A stretch of DNA of 63,185 bases, counting the filler, from Sphacelaria rigidula (Eukaryota): the NCBI GenBank assembly GCA_964200075.2. It is 9 parts of 9 records of this genome, joined end to end, with 100 filler letters (N's around TTAATTAATTAA, not from the genome) between each part and the next. Parts side by side here need not be neighbours in the genome. Positions count along the whole stretch, not along the records: positions 7,033 to 13,964 come from CAXNAA020017347.1; 8 more parts are not named here. One strand, written 5' to 3'. Both the position numbers and the translations under genes were made by a program. Below the pieces are notes generated by a model, which made no database searches, was not told the origin of the DNA, and was given only the letters and a program-made list of their open reading frames with translations. This document shows, piece by piece, positions 7,033 through 18,400 of the stretch; the stretch's first letter is position 1, and each line of letters opens with the position of its first letter.

Positions 7033-7539
7033 CCGTAGTCGCGAAGTGTTCACCCCACCTCCCTGCGGCTACACGCATGTAATATTGTTGTCGTCGGGGG
7101 TCGGTTCAACACTACTCCAGCACCGCGTCAACCCTCGACCGATATTTTTTCTTCGCCACTCACGCGGGAGGCATTTTTGTCGCAAGATCTGAGGCACCGA
7201 TTTGCAAGCTTCTGAGGCACCGATTTGAGATCTATTGAAGCCAAACTCTGCCTTGGGGACACTTTCACCCCCTTGCCCAAGGGTTATCGGTATGCCTTGG
7301 TTTGGGGTTGGGGTTAGAGTTGGCGTTAGTCCGAGATAACATTTCTGAGAAATTTCTTTTAGGAGTCGATCGACCAAGTGGTGATTTGACGTGAAAGACA
7401 AAGCATTTCTTAGATTCGAACTCTCAATCTCCGGCCCCTACAGAGTGTGTAGGCTTTGCCGCTGGGGCTCTATGTGTGTGTTCTTCAATTTTTTCACGAC
7501 GCATGTTATTTCCCTTGCTTGATGGAACGGTACCCGCAG

Positions 7540-10500
7540 GTGGTGGCTGTTGGTGCAGAGGATATGACTACCGAAGCTTTGCTCATTTTACTGGCCCCCT
7601 GGCTCAGAGCTGTCGTTTCACCGGAGACCAATGCTGTTGTGTTCAAACGGACGATGGACGGGGTGTTGGAAGCCTTACTGAGGCATTTTCCCGAGGATGA
7701 CGCGGGGGGCGAAGAAGATGATGCAATGGGGCTGTCGGGGGAAGTCGAAGATGAAGTACAGATGTTTAAGCGAGCAGAGTTGGTGAAGGTCCAGGCGTGC
7801 ATATTCGAGGCGGCGGCGGCTGAGCAGGTGATGGATGCTATTGTGGACGGTCGTACTTGGGGGTCGTACTTGGAGGGGATGCTCCAAATATCGATATCCA
7901 GAAAGTCCAGGGTCATACTTTATTTTTCTTGGGAGAAAAAAGAAGAAACGTATTTTGGTGGAGAACTTGTTGTGGGAAACTTGAGAGCAATACGGTTCCC
8001 CAAGGGTTTCTCGGCTGAATCGAATACCTAGCAGCGAAGGAGTTGTTCATGTCAAGCAGGGATGTTATTTCAACAAGCATACGTACGTTTCATCGCCTCA
8101 CTGCTGATTTTTTCGACACCCACGCCTAGGTTCATTCGATATGATGTCATCTGACTGTCGCCCCATATAGCAAAACGCTGCTGGCCGCGGTTTATGAACG
8201 AACATTCATTACTGTTGCGCGGTGCAAGCCGTAGCAATGACCTTGTGTCATGTAGGCCTTGTCTCCCATCCCAACAACCTTTCTGGAAATCTTTTCTCGG
8301 GTGAACTCCACCGTCAAGCCCACAACCAGGGGTGCGATGAAGCTTTTTCTGTTCGTTAGCCACGCCCCCCTGACCCTGCGCGCTTGCTATACCGCCACCG
8401 TTTCTATTTTTTGTTGTTGCATGTGCTGACCGATATCCTGCGCACATGTACCATCACATCCACCAAACGACCAGACGTTGGAAAAACGTCGAAAGGAGCT
8501 CTACCAACTTCACCGAAAATACCAAAAAAGGACGAATGTCGCTCCCGATCTGAACGCCAAGCCAAGGGGTATCATTTCTCCACCGCCTAAGGATGCGACA
8601 GACTCTGAAGCGGTGTCCTCCGATGAGGAAGACCAGACCAGGGATGACTTATCCCCTGAGTTTGGTGGGCCTATCCCGAGGGCGGTGCGTCGGCCTGGCG
8701 AGTCGTCTGTGGTGGGCTGGGCCGCTGCGGGTGTTGCGGCGGGGGCGATTAATGCTGGTGATGCTGATGGGGTGAGTACATTTGATTTTCATTTTTTTAC
8801 GGATTGGTTGTTGGGAAATTGCTTCGGTTTGGTTGTGTCCCTCGGCGTCTTCCTTTGTTTGTGCTGTGGTAGTTGTGAACCAACCACCACCTTGTCGGAT
8901 ATCGTCGTGGGGTGCCGACGAGGAACTTGCGGTGCACAAGGATGTTCACTGCTGGAAGTATGTCGCTGCACCGTCACCGTCTTCACACACAGTGCGTCGT
9001 TAGTATCTGTGCTCACTCTCGTCCAAAGAGTCTTTGGTTCCAAAATTTTATGAACTCGCGCTCACCGCCACGGCCCCGCATACGATCGTGAAATCAACCA
9101 ATTTTCCTTGTGTTTTCCTGCATGTACCTGCTGCAGGACGACGAAGAGAAAGGAAGAGCATCGCGGCCGACGACAACAGGTGACCGAAACAGCGATGGAG
9201 TCAAAAGGAACAAAAAAAGAAGCAAGCGCGAAGACGAGTCATCAGACGTGGAGGATGCCGACAGTGCTGCTACTCCTGCTGTGGATCCGCGTTCTGGCAA
9301 GAAAGTCGGCAAAGCTTCCCGGGAAAAGGAGAACGATACGGCAACACGGCGTGATGATGATGACAGTGGCGACTCAAGTGCTTCCAAGAAACCCAAGAAA
9401 AAGAAGCGAAATCGGGAACCCGCTGGGGGCGTGACAAATGATTCTGATTCTGGTTCTGGTCCCGTTGCGGAACAACAATGTAGTGAAGATGCGGAGCAAT
9501 GCGGGGAGGGTGGCGCCGGAGAGAGCACTGCTCAAAAGACTCGAAAGAAGCGGGACTCGGGTTCGGTTGAAATTGCCGTAAACGGTTCCGATTCTGCCTC
9601 GAAATCTGTCCCCGTTGCGGAAGAACAGCGCGTTGAGAACCCGGAGCAAGGCGGGGAGACTGGTGGCGGGAAGACTACCTCGAACAAGAAGGCTAGGAAG
9701 AAGAGTCGGCGGGATTCAGGTGCGGTGGAGCCTGGTGCAGTCACAGAAAGTCCCGAGAAGAAAAAGATGAGGAAGGACGGAGATATAGTCATGTGTGCTG
9801 ACGCCGTGTTGGACGGTGCGGTGCTCGGTACCCCTCAAGATGGAAGCGAGGCTGGCAATGCAAATGTCAAGCCAGCGGAAGGAGCCACGCCCCCTGGAGT
9901 GGGTTCTGGTAAGAAAAAAAAGAGGAAGAAGAAGGGTAAGAAGGGGGCGGCAGATGATGGAGGGGATCGTGCCGTGGTGAGCGAGGCGGTGTCAGATAAC
10001 ACGGAAAGCATGGGAAATGGTGTAGGAAGTGCGGCTGTCGGGCCAAGTGAAGGGGTGACCTCAGCCGGAGCACCTGAAGTAGCTTCTGACAATAAAAGCA
10101 AAAAAGGGAGGGACAAGAAGGCGAAGCCGGATAGCTTGGATGAGACCGCAGGAAAAGGTGCTGCGGGGAGCGAAACTATAGCTAGTAATGCTCCGAAGAA
10201 TGATGGTACGGATGGGAGTGTGGCGGGCTTCGTACCAGGCGAAGAGACCGCTCCACCCGGCGTGGCTTCTGGGAAAAAGAAGAGGAAGAAGGGGGACAAG
10301 AAGGGGACGACAGAAAATGGGGATGGTGTCGTCGTCGGCGATGCGGTACCGGGGACACCGCAGAGCAAATGCGAGGAGACGGGCAAGGTGGCGGTTGAAG
10401 CGGGTGGGGTAGTAACGCCACCTGGCACGGGTTCCAGCAAAAACAAGAGTAAGAAGAGTAAAGAAAAAAAAGCGGGTGGCACGGAGGACGACGGGGTATT

Positions 10501-11250
10501 GTCATCGCCGTTGGTTCCTGTCAAGGATGTCGGGAACGTGATGGCGGGAAATCAGGGAGTGAGTGTGTGTGTTGTACTGTGTTTTTGTACACATGGTCGA
10601 ATTTTGTTTTGACTCGTGTAGCGGCTTATCGGGCTCAGGCCTACCCTGGGTCGTAAGTGCCCTCTTTTCTAAGCCAAAGACGTGATGTGACTTTGAATTC
10701 GTGTTCGAGTCAGAGTATTTGTGTTCGTGGCTTTCACAGTGTTCTGCACGTGATTCATGTTCCTAGGTGAAACCCTTGTTTCATGAAGATCTCGAGTAGA
10801 TCATGGTTGTGTGCACTTTGGTTCTCACGCAACTATGAACCAAAAAAACGTGATGATGAATACGAGTATATGAGTTCTTTCTTCTTTTCTCTCAGATTTC
10901 GGAACCAAAGCTTTCGCATTGACCAAGCGTTACTCGGTACCAGTTTGTGTATTTAACTATCCCCCCTCTGCCTCTCCTTGTGTTATCCCCTCAGCCAACT
11001 GCAACTCCCGGCACCTCTAGCGGAAAGAAGAAGAAGAAGAAGAGGAAGTCGGTGTCACCTGTGTCTGAAAAAGTATCTGCAATGGCACCGCCCCCGCCGC
11101 CCGCGGAGGTCACCGACGGAAATGAGGCTGATTCGGGAGAGTTCTTGACACCGACCAAGAAGACCGGCTCGGGGAAGAAAAAAAGATTGGATCCTGGTCC
11201 TTGCAGCAGCTCCAAGAAGACTGTTACATTCGGAAGAAATATCTCGAAAG
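7540..11250 (+). CDS. RRP1: RRP1/Nop52-family nucleolar protein, internal exons 7540-7827, 8475-8771, 9137-10558, 10995-11250 (partial at both ends)
   Basis: Phase-consistent exons. The Nop52 C-terminal signature (LLILLAPW...IFEAAAAEQ|TLEKRRKELYQLHRKYQ) is followed by a long Lys-rich disordered tail. KKTVTFGRN resembles the RRP1B KKVTFG RVxF motif. Confidence 0.65.
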
Positions 11251-12276
11251 GTGACCTCGAGTAGTTCGGTGGTGCTGTATTCGTCTGATTCGTTGGTTTT
11301 CGAACTGCTGGCGTGCCCGCGGACGACATCACGTTGTGCCCTTGCTGATTTTGTTGTTGAAAAGTCTTCATTCCCGGAAGGAACAACAGCACGTCAATCT
11401 TTTGGAAGGTGCATGTTGTGGTCCCCCAGCCATGTTCGCCATGTGGAAGGACAGGCCTACATAATACGTTACTTGATGGTGGGTTCATTTACTGACTGCC
11501 ATGGGAGGCGGGGAGGGTAGACTGACTCGTCGAGGTTTGGAAATTCGTAGGGAATGCGACGAAATTCATTAAAATTCATTAACTATACCCTTCTGAGACC
11601 GGCAAGGACTAACCAGGGGTGAGTGCAGTACATCCAAAGCTTTGGTCCTATAGCTACGGTCGACAATATAAGTCCTTGATTCAAGATTTGAGAAATTTCT
11701 CAGGAAATTTACCGTTTGGAGAAGTTGAGCAGTGGTCCCAGCTCGTCCAGACACTGTTTTTGTCGAAATCAGCGCCTGCCGCAACTACTCGAAGTTTGCC
11801 AACGCACACTTTGTATAGAGGAACCTATAGATCCCCCTTGCCCGAGGATCTCGTACCCCTTGGGTCGGGGTCAGGGTTGGCGTTATTGTTGGTTTGTTTA
11901 AAAAGAATCGACCATGGATATACGACCAAAACTTAAGGTCGCCTCTGTGATTGTCCATACCGATTTACAAATGGACCCCCCGTGCAGACCGGCTCCTCAC
12001 CCTCGGTTAGTGAAGGCACAGTCCCAAACGGGTTGAGTACGTGCTGAGCTTTTATTCTATTGGCGAGGTATTTCGTCCCACGAAGGGAGTTTCTCGTACA
12101 ACCTTCGACAAGGTAAAATATTTACAGTCAACCGTTATGCCTTTTTTTGCTGTCGGGAGGTGAACAGAGTTGAGAGCGTTCAGATTACTACATCGTTTTT
12201 GACGGTTGGCTCCGATCCGTTTCGAATGTGCTCACCTCTATGATACGTGACAAGAAAGAACAGAAGCTTCTTTCCT

Positions 12277-13951
12277 CTACTGAGATGACGAGAACAACGC
12301 TGTAGATGCCGCCCCAGTCATATGCCTCCTTCGAACTGGAGAGGGCCGTGGTGACAAATACACGCTCAATATCGTACCGATCAGTAGTGATTGTGTCGAA
12401 ACGAGCCGTTCGCCTGTACAGGTGAAGGAGAAAACATGGTGCATCTTTACTATCCCCAATCGGTCCGACCAAGCTCTAGATGCCCCAGCCTCATGCCGTT
12501 CTCGGAAATTGAGGAAGCTTTGGTGACGGATACACGCTCAATATCGTACCGTTTTTGCCGATTGGCTCCGATCCGTTTCGAACGTGCTCACCCTCATGCT
12601 ACGTGACAAGAAAAGCAGAAGCTCCTTTCCTCTACTGAGATGACGAGAACAACGCTGTAGATGCAGCCCCAGTCATATGCCTCCTCCAGACTGGAGAGGG
12701 CCGTGGTGACAAATACACGCTCAATATCGTACTGATCAGTAGTGACTGTGCCGAAAAAATCTATTCGCCTGTCGAAACATTCCACACCCTGGACAGTACA
12801 TGGTGAATGGATGCATCAGATGAAATTTGTACTGGATAAAGTATAGACCTATTGCAACTATTGACGGCCGACATCAGTTTCAGTAAGTCTTCACCTCACC
12901 GAGTACACTTCTTGTTTATGCATCTGTTGACCATATATCATACGTTGTTCAGGGTGTGAAACGTTCTGAATAGAAGTGCTGTTTGCTTTTGCTCACTGTG
13001 TTGCGACTTGCCGCTGAGATGACGAGAACAATGCTGTAGATGCCGCCCCAGTCATGCGCTCTCTCAAAAAATGGAGGGGCCGTGGTGACACATACCCGTC
13101 CAATATCGTACCGATCGGGAGTGTATGTGCCGAAGAAAACCGTGTCTGCTAAAACATACCGAAAAATAGTGATGGCTTTCGCTCATTCTGTTTGGAGTTT
13201 CTCCCGAAATGAGTTTCTCCTGAAATGACGAGAACAACGCTGTAGATGCCGCCCCAGTCATATGCCTTTTACGGGGCCGTGGTGACAAATACACGCTCAA
13301 TATCGTACCGATCAGGAGTGACTCGTGTGAACAGAAACTGTTTGCCTGTTGATAAATCTCGAAAATAAGTATTGTTCGTCTTCTCTCCACGTCTATCCCT
13401 CGTTCTGAGGGGACAAAAAGAACGCTGTAGATTCTGCAGCAGCCATCTGCCTCCTCTAAATTGAAGGGGATCATGGTGATGAAAACACTCTTAATATCGC
13501 CACCAACCAGGAGTGACTGCGTCGAAGGATATCGCTTGCTTGTCGAATGTTTTTGAAGCGAGCTATCGTAGGTTTCCGCCTTTCCCGTGGACTAATTTCG
13601 AGAAAAGGTGTTCTGTGTCTTCGCTATCTCCATTCTGTCCTTCTCCTGAGATGACGAGAACAACGCTGTAGATGCCGCCCCAGTCATATGCCTCCTCCGG
13701 ACTGGAGAGGGCCGTGGTGACAAATACACGCTCAATATCGCACCGATCACGGAGTGTAGGTGTCGAGAAAAACCCGTTTGTCTGACCACGAAATATCAGA
13801 GGTGTTACGTGTTCCCTCTTCCCCGTTTTTGCCCCCACTCCTGAGATGACGAGAACAACGCTGTAGATGCCGCCCCAGTCATATGCCTCCTCCGGACTGG
13901 AGAGGGCCGTGGTGACAAATACACGCTCAATATCGTACCGATCACGGAGTG
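12277..13951 (+). ncRNA. Tandem cluster of about 8 box C/D snoRNA-like units (U31/snR67-like, LSU P-loop guide): 12277-12387, ~12477-12550 (partial), 12632-12742, 13014-13121, 13217-13318, ~13405-13513 (degenerate), 13643-13754, 13836-13951
   Basis: Unit layout: terminal stem, box C ATGACGA, guide TGCCGCCCCAGT, degenerate D' CATA, internal hairpin, C'-like GTGACAA/GTGATGA, second guide, box D CCGA/CTGA, terminal stem. Stems covary (CTACTGA/TCAGTAG versus CTCCTGA/TCAGGAG). The guide complements LSU rRNA GCUGGGGCGGCA. Confidence 0.62.
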
Positions 13952-15448
13952 TAGGTGTCGAGAANNNNNNNNNNNNNNNNNNNNNNNNNNNNNNNNNNNN
14001 NNNNNNNNTTAATTAATTAANNNNNNNNNNNNNNNNNNNNNNNNNNNNNNNNNNNNNNNNNNNNACTGATTATCTTGCATTTGGATGGCAGCCTACAATG
14101 AGTTGCTTTATTTTCTGGTATCGTCGCTTCCCGAGGGGGGGGGTATTTGAATGCACGAAAAAAGAGGATCAAAAGTCTGTCAGACGACCTGCCACACTGG
14201 AGGTGCGTTTGTATTTGGTTCATAACGGTGTCAATCGGAATGAATGAGCGTTAGTCACCTACAGCAAGCTCGTTCGAACGTTTCTGCTTTCAACGACGAT
14301 TTGACTTGGAATTTTTTGCAAGAAGTGGCCCAAAATAACCCCCCCCCCTAACGTTTGATGACTCAGTTATGGAAATTGAGCTAAAAAAATATATAAGGCC
14401 GAAGAGCAGTGTTCATTTCTCCTCAAGACTGCCCTGAATACCCGAAAAAAAATGAAAAAGCTATTTTTTTAAGCTTCATCATGCACGAGCGGTTTTCCAT
14501 ACGAAATTTCATGGGATGAATCCCAAAAACTGGGACGCGGTACTGTATCCAGATTTAGTTCATCTAGTGCCTCTGCTCGTAATATATTGATGTTCGTATA
14601 GAAAACCGTGTGCACCATATTTTGATATAGATAACGAATTAGGTGAAGGTGAGCGTACCTATCGTCTACCCGTATTTCAGGGAATGTCCACACCAAAAAT
14701 CGTCGCCATACGCTGAATGCATCGATCGGGGTGTCGTATAGAATTTCGTATGGACGCCATCTCCGTAAGGTATAGCAATTACATTGCATGGGGTTCAATC
14801 AACGAGAAAACATTGCTCAAAACTTTTGAGCTGCTGGGCACCTTCCCCTTGATTAGACGGTCTGTGTCGATGAGATATTGCTTTGAGAGCTCAAATCCGG
14901 TTCTAGGCTGGCCCAGCTCGTTGTGGAGTAGGATCCACAGCACAACCGAGCTGGGAGGTGACGCTGTCACCAGGCGCTCCCCTTCTTCATTGCACATGCC
15001 CACACCCACTGCCCCGCATGATACATGCCGTGTCACCTATAACACGTCACCGTGCAGGCGGGGCTAACTCACGTAGGGTAATCATGGAGGTCACGGCGAG
15101 GCATTTTGCCCTACCCGCGACGTCAGAACTCCATGACAATACAGTAGGTATCCTCATGCAGACCACACCGAAAACAAAAGTACCTCTAGCGGTCGGCGAA
15201 AGGGTTACATGTATTCAAAGGCGGCGAATGCCATATCGTCACTGCACTTTTCCATCTTCCTGAAAGATCGCACAATTTTCCGTAATATTGAACATATACA
15301 ATATATATCAAGAGGCAGCCGAGAGGTTCGACTTAGTAGGCCATATCCGGTCGGATCACGTATCAACTGCCACAGGCCATCTATCAATAATTTCCCTCAC
15401 CCTGTCAATACAGTGGATCCCTCGAAACCACCCCCGAACATTTCTCAC

Positions 15449-18400
15449 CGATGAATGCGGGTACTGCGGGGGAGGCCCACCTCGCGGCATACGCCCGCGA
15501 TCGTCGTATGGTGGCTCCTCATTGTAGCCGCCACGCGGGGGCGGGAATGGCTCATCCTTCACAACGAAAAGTATCAAAAGAGACCCCGATGTATGGATTC
15601 AAGACCAACGGAAGGAGGGAAATATCATTCATTTCATCAGACAAAATGGGGCAAATCACCAAATATATGCCAGACAAACTACGGCACGAAAGTGATTCGA
15701 CACGAGACAACTCTGTTATTCAACAGGATTCGGCGCCCGCGAGGATCCGGCCAAGCTGAGACTTGCATCGTATTCTCCCACATGTAGCACGACACGACGG
15801 TGCACCATCAACAAATCGAGGCACAGAGGAAGAAGAGCAAAGCTCTCGGATAGGCGCTCGCAAATACACCTCATCTTCGAGCGTCGAGTCAAACAGAAGG
15901 GGGAAAAGGCGTTTGCCCCACTACCCCATACTAACGCCACGAAATCTCGATAGCACCCAACCCGACTGCGGTTGACCCTGATACTCGTAGCCCAACGTGG
16001 TCATGGGCCCCCCTTTTAGTTCGGCAAATGTGGAAAATTCTATCAACTCTAGCCCGCACTTAACGATCACACTCACCAGTCTCTCGGGCGGCAGGGGGCG
16101 ACGCCTTGGCCCTTGCTCGTCGAAGTGGTCGTCGAAATAAGGATCCTCTGGATGGCCTCGTCCCTACGTGTTGAGGGATCAAGGAACAAGGAGGTCCGAC
16201 AGACGAGCACGGATATGTAGTGAATGAAGCAAGCAGGAAGCGGTATGCTGTGTCAACCATCCTGGGATGCGCCATCACCTAATCGAAGCACTCTATTCCG
16301 CCCGTGACGATGTATGTTGCCACAAACTTCATCGGGAAACGCATTGACAACGCTCCTGGTATGTTTCGGTTCTACTCCCTCCTCCAGGTGATCCTACACG
16401 TACCACCGCCCACAACCTCCCTCGACCAACAACAGATACATCAATTCGACATTTGTAAATCCCGACGCGTCGCTTCAACACCTGTGCTCCATATTACTCT
16501 CGTATCCCCCTCCAATAACTATGCTTTCAATTACCACAACAACTTAAGTCTCTCCTCTAGAGCTTAGGGACAACACTTGCACACATAGCAAAACACACAA
16601 CATACCTGCAGCCTCCTTGGCCTAACCGGAGGACCCATGAAATCCCTCTCCCCGGGTCGACCACCGACGTGACCAGGCGGCACGTGCCTCTCCAGGAGGT
16701 CCATCCCCAACACTACAGGACCACCATCCTCGGGGCTTCTCCTGCTCGGCATTCTCCCAGGCGGCAGCCTACCGGGGGGCGCCCCCGTCGCCCCCGGCGG
16801 CGGCCCCCCGTGCGCCGGATGCAATGCATCGGGTCTCGGTGGCGAGTCATCAAACGCAGACCACTCACGAAACCCGCTGCTGCCGTCACCAGCTCCCCTC
16901 GTGCTCCAACCGGCACCAGCGTCGTCAGCTCTCTCCGGACTCCACTCGTCGGGCCTGGTCGCCGGCGGAAAGTGTTCACCACCTCGACCGCCGCGGCCGC
17001 CACCTCGCCCACCCCACATGTCGCGGCTGCCACCGCGGCCGCGGCCGCCGGGACCTGGGCCCCTACCACCTCGGTCGAACCGTTCGCGCGGCTCTTCCCA
17101 CTCTGGATCGAACAGGTCGTCGTGCAATCTGCCGCTGGGGCGCTCCCATTCGCCGCGCGCAGGCGGTCTCCCACCCACCACCGGAGGTCCTCCGCCCCGA
17201 CGTGGCCCTTGCTCCTCCTCCCAGTAAGGGTCGTCGTAGTGGCGACCAGGCGGTTCGTCTCGCGGTCGCCTCTCTCCTCTGCCACCGCCGCCGCGCCCAC
17301 CGTCGTCATACCCCCCGCGAGCCATTCTCTCCCTCTCGCCACGACCCCGGCCGCCTCGACCGCCGCGTCCGCCGCGCCCCCCGCGTCCGCCATCGTCGAA
17401 ATAGTCGTCCCAAACGTCGTCAAATTCCGCACCAGATACACCGCGCCCACCCCGGGGATTGTGCCCTAGGGGCGCATGATCTCCCCCTCTGCCGGCGGGC
17501 CCGCTGCGTGAGTAGGCTGGCAGATCGTTCTTCCGGCCGCGCCCACCGCCACCGCCTCGAGCCCTCTCTAGCGGAGGTTCAAACTCGTGATCGTTCAGCT
17601 CGTGTCTATGCATCGGGCCCCTAGCGGCGATAACCCGGCCTCTTCCTCCTCCAACGCCGCGCTCGCTGCCGCCCTCCCCCCGAATCGCCTTGGAGAATGC
17701 GGGGTGTCCTTCGCGTAGAGGCGCTCCCATGAATCGCGACATGCCTTCCTCATCCCCATCCTCTCTCTGCCGTTTGGACGCGTAACGCAATTCGTCCCGT
17801 CCGGACCTGCCGAAACGCCCGCTGGCTTCGCCGCCACGCGATCGTTCCGGTTCTGCCTCGCGGCTTACTTTGTCGCCGCCTCGTCCATACCGAGACGATT
17901 CATCCCTCCCGGCCCCACGTGATGAAGGCGGGTCACTGCTACCGTAGTATTCATCGCCGCCCCTTGAACCTTCTTTCACCTTCTGCCTGTTTGCTTTATC
18001 GCTTCTGGAACCCCTGGGATTACCGTCCGGAGAACGGCTGGAATCGCGGCGTTGGTGACGCGTGTGTTGCTCACCGGATCCGTACCGCGATGATGATCTG
18101 TCCTCTCCACCGTCAACGACGCCCTATTCAAGAGTGCGAGTAATCGGGGCGTTTGGGGGGTGGGCAAGAGCGACGAGTGATATGCCGACAGAGCATGGTT
18201 CATCGCATAGGATGACGACAAACCTTGAACGGTGATAATCTTACAGAAACCCAGAAGGAAGGCGGGATCTTGTGCCGCATCGTGTGTCGTAACATAAAAC
18301 AACTACAACCACAAGAAAAATTCTACACGTTCGCGCATCTGGATCTGGGGTGAACCCTCCAGCCTCCCATTTCAACGATTCCAACACGGTACAGAATCCC

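Follow-up and report, generated by a model that had tools for sequence, protein, structure and literature searches.

A tandem array of putative U31-type box C/D guide RNA units in an RRP1/Nop52 intron of Sphacelaria rigidula

What kind of element is repeated at the end of contig G000:C17347 of Sphacelaria rigidula, and why is it present in so many copies? The array was analysed within a window of 63,185 nucleotides, a join of contigs in which G000:C17347 occupies positions 7033–13964. The initial annotation had described about eight copies of a ~110-nt unit running into the contig end, and this description held: seven full units of 102–116 nt, with pairwise identities of 65–99%, and one 5′-truncated unit were counted at 12277–13951, and the last unit stops 13 nt short of the contig end, the array being cut by the contig break. 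The reading favoured here, with a probability of roughly 80%, is that the units are U31-type box C/D guides of about 100–110 nt, which lie in an intron of the RRP1 gene, serve methylation of the P-loop of the large-subunit (LSU) rRNA and were multiplied by unequal crossing-over.

The host gene was delimited with RNA contigs from runs X1, X3 and X8, which contain GT..AG joints; run X5 is contiguous and behaves as DNA. Exons of an RRP1/Nop52 gene were found upstream of the array on the + strand at 7540–7824 (further upstream exons lie off the contig), 8472–8770, 9136–10558 (a long, lysine-rich exon with an open reading frame) and 10995–11250, connected by the joints 7824/8472, 8770/9136 and 10558/10995. 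The last exon on the contig ends with KKTVTFGRNISK and is followed by a donor GT at 11251. In 3/3 RNA runs (X1 and X8 appear to be the same data set) the mRNA contig departs from the genome sequence at 11250; its continuation, EHQKSIKDL, agrees with the C-terminal motif of the best full-length homolog, P0003 (E 7e-38). Because the mRNA exits at this point and continues as an RRP1 motif, the array is placed within an intron of RRP1, in sense orientation, and the RRP1-like splice donor claimed upstream on the same strand is real. The intron covers 11251–13964 (+); its acceptor and 3′ end lie outside the assembly, and a search of the assembly for the next RRP1 exon found nothing. Searching Pfam and Atlas directly with the exons of the window likewise gave no match, and the RRP1 identity therefore derives from the homologs, with Pfam Nop52 present in 10/10 of those scanned (of 29). 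No splice joint was observed within the array in the RNA runs, which argues against the units being spliced as coding exons, an outcome that the initial annotation had named as contrary to its own interpretation. RNA contigs covered parts of the intron at a depth of 3–7, compared with 180–260 for the exons and similar to the preceding retained intron; being assembled from long RNA, they are uninformative about the presence, strand or abundance of a mature small RNA. A candidate H/ACA RNA or hairpin at 12148–12262 was unsupported (z −0.4). High-copy repeats with telomere-like words were observed at 7268–7320 and 11743–11917 and were linked by joints in X3 and X5. On another contig of the window, an open frame of 519 aa with abundant RGG and proline is located at 16564–18123 on the minus strand. 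A viral_contigs scan gave 0 matches.

All units are oriented on the + strand, and the full ones share one order of elements: terminal stem, C box, guide, D′ box, a variable hairpin, C′ box and D box. In unit 1 (12277–12387) these are the stem 12277–12283/12381–12387, C 12285–12291, guide 12307–12318, D′ 12319–12322, C′ 12348–12354 and D 12377–12380. The truncated unit follows at 12469–12553 and has neither a C box nor an unbroken guide. Unit 2 (12632–12742) has CTGA as its D box and one mismatch in the guide, and unit 3 (13011–13121) has an intact guide, CATG as D′ and a terminal stem that is broken in part. The inner hairpin is shortened in unit 4 (13217–13318); guide, C box and D box are broken in unit 5 (13402–13513), a putative pseudogene. 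Units 6 (13643–13754) and 7 (13836–13951) complete the array. Judged by sequence, units 1, 4, 6 and 7 seem intact, 2 and 3 are doubtful, and unit 5 and the truncated unit appear dead. The guide word occurred in the array with five exact matches and one with a single mismatch; allowing up to two mismatches, the window contained 19 occurrences, whereas shuffles averaged 5.8 and reached 19 in 0/100 cases. One spacer contains, at 12770–12970, a long fold-back repeat (no strand assigned; z −5.7, 0/200 shuffles equally stable), where run X5 shows loose ends and a very high depth of DNA reads; the repeat is probably a dispersed palindromic MITE-like element and no component of the snoRNA.

The boxes of the seven full units were in agreement with the non-canonical forms given in the initial annotation. 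The C box was ATGACGA in six units and GGGACAA in one, the D box CCGA in five, CTGA in one and CCAA in one, and the D′ box CATA in five, CATG in one and CATC in one, while C′ was RTGGTGA in all seven. The canonical consensus (RUGAUGA/CUGA, with U.U at 3b.3n) was thus not found, since C was AUGACGA in 6/7 and D was CUGA in 1/7, and the units were filed as variant-box guides like Ot-CDsno121 of Ostreococcus tauri. In unit 1, C box AUGACGA opposite D box CCGA gives the pairs G.A, A.G, C.C and G-C, and units 1, 4, 6 and 7 share a 7-bp stem, a 3-nt bulge (GAU/AAU) and this series of pairs; the third pair is C.U in unit 2. The k-turn layout of a box C/D snoRNA is therefore present, with 85.7% of terminal stem cells paired, as are internal D′ and C′ boxes (CAUA and GUGGUGA) enclosing a helix that is 93.3% paired. 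Apart from the C.C third pair, the units follow the standard k-turn layout set out in the accessible part of PMC4382518. According to the accessible part of PMC5689011, U.U is strongly conserved at this position in the C/D k-turns of humans and archaea, and the change to C.C counts against the main reading.

Support from folding was mixed. The inner hairpin has a mean identity of 0.74 among the six best copies, compared with 0.92–1.0 for boxes and guides, which bears out the earlier statement that the hairpin varies while boxes and guides persist. Over nine copies, 87.6% of 177 cells were paired, a value as high being reached by 1/500 shuffles. The compensatory stem changes described earlier stood only in part: the stems do pair, yet both sides change in only 4/20 pairs (6 cells, nine copies). 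The A-U/C-G switch represents one event, since both of its carriers are copies of a single duplicated block. Stem covariation is accordingly suggestive, not strong, and is inflated by the kinship of the copies. In folding, single units surpassed shuffles only weakly (z −1.5 to −1.7), which also counts against the main reading, and no pairs (0) of a shared structure were predicted in the conserved 3′ flank. Pairing of the segment kept between C box and guide with the helix after the P-loop was rejected, as 1456/2000 shuffles did equally well. At the 5′ end of the unit (12281–12320), about 20 nt resemble the 5′ end of the Rfam snR40 consensus (E 3–8); this segment is well kept among copies, and the pairing role tested for it was not found.

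The target of the guide was sought in LSU sequences of other eukaryotes, since the host's nuclear rDNA is nearly absent from the assembly and its own P-loop is unassembled; the eukaryotic LSU fragments came from public prokaryote records. The antisense element directly upstream of D′ pairs with the P-loop over 14 bp including one G.U, and this was the best site in 3/3 LSU sequences scanned; on the full LSU, the match was equalled by 3/300 shuffled guides. The P-loop was identical in 11/14 LSU fragments, and the other three do not reach it. Counted from D′, the fifth base lies opposite the second G in the P-loop G run, which we take to be E. coli G2251, and human SNORD31 presumably targets the same G2619/G2251-equivalent. 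The register is that of U31-type guides, as in snoU31b and plant U31. The yeast position Gm2619, guided by snR67, corresponds to E. coli Gm2251 (PMC11121408, accessible part). These pairings support a U31-type guide for the P-loop G, as first proposed, and by analogy with the family the guide would direct 2′-O-methylation of this G in the alga, the pairing having been computed on the rRNA of other eukaryotes. The label snR67 proved half right: the units share with it the register on G2619 (PMC8053091, PMC11121408), while the second guide that yeast snR67 carries for Um2724 (PMC8053091; accessible parts of both sources) was not found in them. The Rfam check suggested earlier had a divided outcome. 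The window gave 0 hits at gathering level and no SNORD31 or snR67 match at E ≤ 10, and the missing gathering-level match counts against the main reading; the best weak match, snoU31b (RF01285; 19.9 bits against a cut-off of 37, E 1.1), had the identical register.

Among other rRNA sequences of the assembly, mutated and interrupted nuclear LSU fragments (L019, G000:C18285:5694–6046) were the only nuclear LSU pieces scored. A plastid contig of 131.8 kb is present. Contigs G000:C13 and G000:C5 (L044, L045) gave similar non-plastid SSU scores of 522 and 518 bits, which may reflect a pair of mitochondrial genomes or the presence of another organism among the contigs.

For the element upstream of the D box, which is 92% identical among the six best copies, no target comparable to the P-loop emerged. 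In nuclear LSU no site was above chance (139/300 shuffles as good), and the 16 further eukaryotic rDNA fragments yielded none either, the best pairing there being 10 bp with two G.U. Pairing with LSU sequences covering the Um2724-equivalent site was not above chance, a guessed domain-IV variant of the LSU target was not found, and a candidate host match obtained in the target search was discarded as not rRNA. The best match was to the alga's plastid 23S rRNA (13 bp, two G.U), a score reached by 13/300 shuffles over five rRNAs, and it is probably due to chance. Of 16 substitution types in the element, eight were C>T or A>G, which keep wobble pairing, against two reverse transitions.

Whether the odd boxes reflect a code of the whole lineage, one of two explanations offered initially, was answered by other snoRNA genes of the genome. 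All four strong U14-like genes have CUGA as D box, with C as AUGAUGA in one and GGGAUGA in three, so that a lineage-wide divergent k-turn code is ruled out. Three of them (C GGGAUGA) lie together with two weak U15-like copies at G000:C773:5320–6613 and ~7490–7970 (L091, L092), and the fourth, with canonical boxes, at G000:C187:14642–14759 (L094); all U14-like and U15-like matches were below their Rfam cut-offs. These clusters on C773 indicate that local snoRNA duplication is usual in this genome. A further C/D-looking stretch was observed near C773:5237–5276.

Comparison with known guides suggests instead that the odd boxes characterise U31-type guides of algae and are not special to the RRP1 locus, because Ot-CDsno121 shares the odd C and C′ boxes, and plant U31 has D′ CUUA and C′ AUGGUGA. 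In the accessible part of PMC7671301, Ot-CDsno121 is an uncapped RNA of 101 nt, expressed at ~970 TPM, cut from a cluster, with 25S G2451 as its only predicted target. It resembles the units in guide, register, C box (RUGACGA), the C′ context CCGUGGUGA and a length of about 100 nt. Its boxes are C GUGACGA, C′ GUGGUGA and D′ CAGA, the latter differing from CAUA in the units although both are non-canonical, and we read its D box as CGGA, giving C-G in the k-turn where CCGA of the units gives C.C. Its D-side sequence is unrelated, and it occurs once, in an intergenic cluster whose snoRNAs differ from one another, whereas the units are one amplified family. Plant U31 (RF01285; PMC5122169, accessible part) likewise has the P-loop guide with a G.U, D′ CUUA in register, a hairpin and C′ AUGGUGA, and occurs as paralogs; unlike the units, it has canonical C and D boxes (RUGAUGA/CUGA). 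Across 25 plant species it has 0–7 copies per genome, while other snoRNA families reach dozens in wheat, and the same part of that source gives no convincing D-side target for it. Metagenome scanning returned 15 loci, 13 of which look like chance; the remaining two, L056 and L058, have the same sequence and contain a similar unit with D′ CAUA, which in L056 adjoins look-alikes of CDsno122 and CDsno123. The L056 unit was detected with the unit models by nhmmer only (E 0.004), and the covariance model missed it at E ≤ 1, so that the link rests on motif order and synteny; this weak detection and the many chance loci count against the main reading. The boxes of this unit (L056:1480–1580) read C AUGAAGA, D′ CAUA and D CGGA, and its k-turn pair represents a third variant.

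The arrangement of the array has partial counterparts. Clusters in plants, Chlamydomonas and Euglena (PMC7671301, PMC5122169; accessible parts) contain several snoRNAs per precursor, ribosome-biogenesis hosts and duplicated isoforms; the array, unlike these polycistronic clusters, repeats a single family. SNORD115/116 resemble it in their tandem C/D copies and birth-and-death turnover, as far as the accessible part of bioRxiv 10.64898/2026.07.28.739784 describes them, but are confined to placental mammals, number dozens to hundreds of copies and have proposed mRNA targets, whereas the array has a conserved rRNA guide and occupies one intron of a coding gene. The open-access literature searched yielded no study of the RRP1-intron locus, of an amplified U31 or of brown-algal snoRNAs. 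An Ectocarpus annotation reportedly lists snoRNA loci.

The spacers have the sizes of 78–268 nt described earlier, but they are partly homologous and not mostly unrelated. Directly behind the units, they resemble one another by 62% over 40 nt compared with 49% in shuffles, whereas the 40 nt before each unit are not alike (49% against 48%), and 11/28 spacer pairs beat all but at most two of 200 shuffles. The shared first 40 nt indicate a duplication unit of about 200 nt, larger than the snoRNA alone; in addition, one block of 355 nt is duplicated at ~90%. An X5 contig over the core of unit 7 had a depth of 788 compared with 64.6 for the host gene, about 12-fold, of which assembled copies explain 2.9-fold; four control stretches in X5 gave 0.86–1.38 and the spacer between units 6 and 7 was single-copy (0.93). 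Unassembled copies thus share the core and not this spacer. The depth, a rough measure and not a true copy count, suggests about nine near-identical cores outside the assembly, and with about eight assembled there are perhaps 16–17 copies in all; the missing cores would continue the RRP1 intron. Seven decayed units were found elsewhere, four on C2524 (one split by an insert) and three on C3318, and a search for host genes of these two arrays found none; pieces of a cytochrome c heme lyase (PF01265) were observed on C3318 (L069:3653–4864) on the strand opposite to the decayed array. At least three of 27,214 contigs carry the family, together with one 22-nt scrap, these counts being lower bounds in which decayed copies may be underrepresented; the units are thus not part of a genome-wide transposon or satellite, the other contrary outcome named in the initial annotation. 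Intact and decaying units stand side by side, as expected from the birth-and-death of copies that it had proposed. The exact guide followed by D′ occurred in a whole, uninterrupted unit four times, always in the RRP1 intron (4/4); two further occurrences belong to a split and a half unit.

Why the copies were kept, if they were kept, can be answered in more than one way. Selection for the amplification itself, with copies maintained for dose or for a second, non-rRNA target guided by the D-side element, is unlikely. It would account for a core amplified beside a single-copy spacer, for the identity of the D-side element and for the excess of wobble-keeping substitutions in it; copies of the SNORD115/116 arrays are proposed to be kept for a non-rRNA target (bioRxiv 10.64898/2026.07.28.739784), yeast snR67 can be limiting (PMC8053091), and plant U31 stays at few copies (PMC5122169; accessible parts of all three). 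At least two of the eight assembled units and most of the seven elsewhere are broken, however, the D-side element lacks a target in the rDNA fragments just as plant U31 lacks a convincing one, and tens of copies are reached by other plant snoRNA families. The high identity of the cores could also stem from recent duplication and not from selection. A broader proposal, that the intron is a maintained single-family amplifier of at least 16 copies with a homogenised core and an undescribed brown-algal processing, in which a C.C k-turn folds without protein and the D-side element guides a non-rRNA target, appears doubtful as a whole; folding without protein would be allowed for C.C by the 3b=C rule in the accessible part of PMC4382518.

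It is decidedly unlikely that a single snoRNA gene seeded a local satellite whose intron yields little or no RNA, any working copy being elsewhere. Such a dead repeat would fit the homologous spacers, with their ~200-nt repeat unit, the decayed arrays on C2524 and C3318, and C.C in place of the usual U.U. Against it stand the confinement of exact guides in whole units to the RRP1 intron, hairpins that alter their sequence yet remain paired, a family limited to three contigs and a scrap, and an expressed Ostreococcus ortholog with the same odd C box (PMC7671301, accessible part). An organellar origin or aim of both antisense elements, in plastid 23S rRNA, is very improbable. Pairing of the D′ guide with the P-loop of the plastid does extend over 13 bp, and the D-side match lies ~150 nt further on the same rRNA, one base from the D box, its score being matched by 1/300 shuffles on plastid LSU; over five rRNAs chance reaches that score far more easily, as given above, and the test was made after the match had been seen. 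Moreover, the P-loop is universal and the nuclear match longer, the best plastid match outside both elements is 9 nt, and we know of no box C/D snoRNPs in plastids.

Under the preferred reading of U31-type guides multiplied by unequal crossing-over, the units would be transcribed with the RRP1/Nop52 pre-mRNA, splicing around them having been observed. By analogy with polycistronic snoRNAs, they would then be freed from the intron, separated by cleavage within the spacers and shortened as far as the terminal stem. The stem, the 3-nt bulge and the pairs G.A, A.G, C.C and G-C have the geometry of a k-turn, which would bind an L7Ae-family protein and recruit Nop56/58 and fibrillarin. The D′ guide would then pair with the P-loop, and fibrillarin would 2′-O-methylate the equivalent of yeast G2619/E. 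coli G2251, as expected from the family. Unequal crossing-over would have multiplied a ~200-nt unit, of which four to five assembled copies look intact and others are decaying. The guide belongs to a known kind, what is out of the ordinary is confined to its many copies and a single exchanged base pair, and the array does not point to a new mechanism.

The array would supply, for a brown alga, the guide of a P-loop methylation that is conserved universally, and the features of its units show why Rfam misses such a U31-type guide there. The k-turn pair that is U.U in textbooks is C.C in these units, and we read it as C-G for O. tauri and as A.G for L056, so that algal U31-type guides may offer a natural series for studying the rules of snoRNP assembly. 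The locus as a whole may serve as a compact case of the birth and death of a snoRNA.
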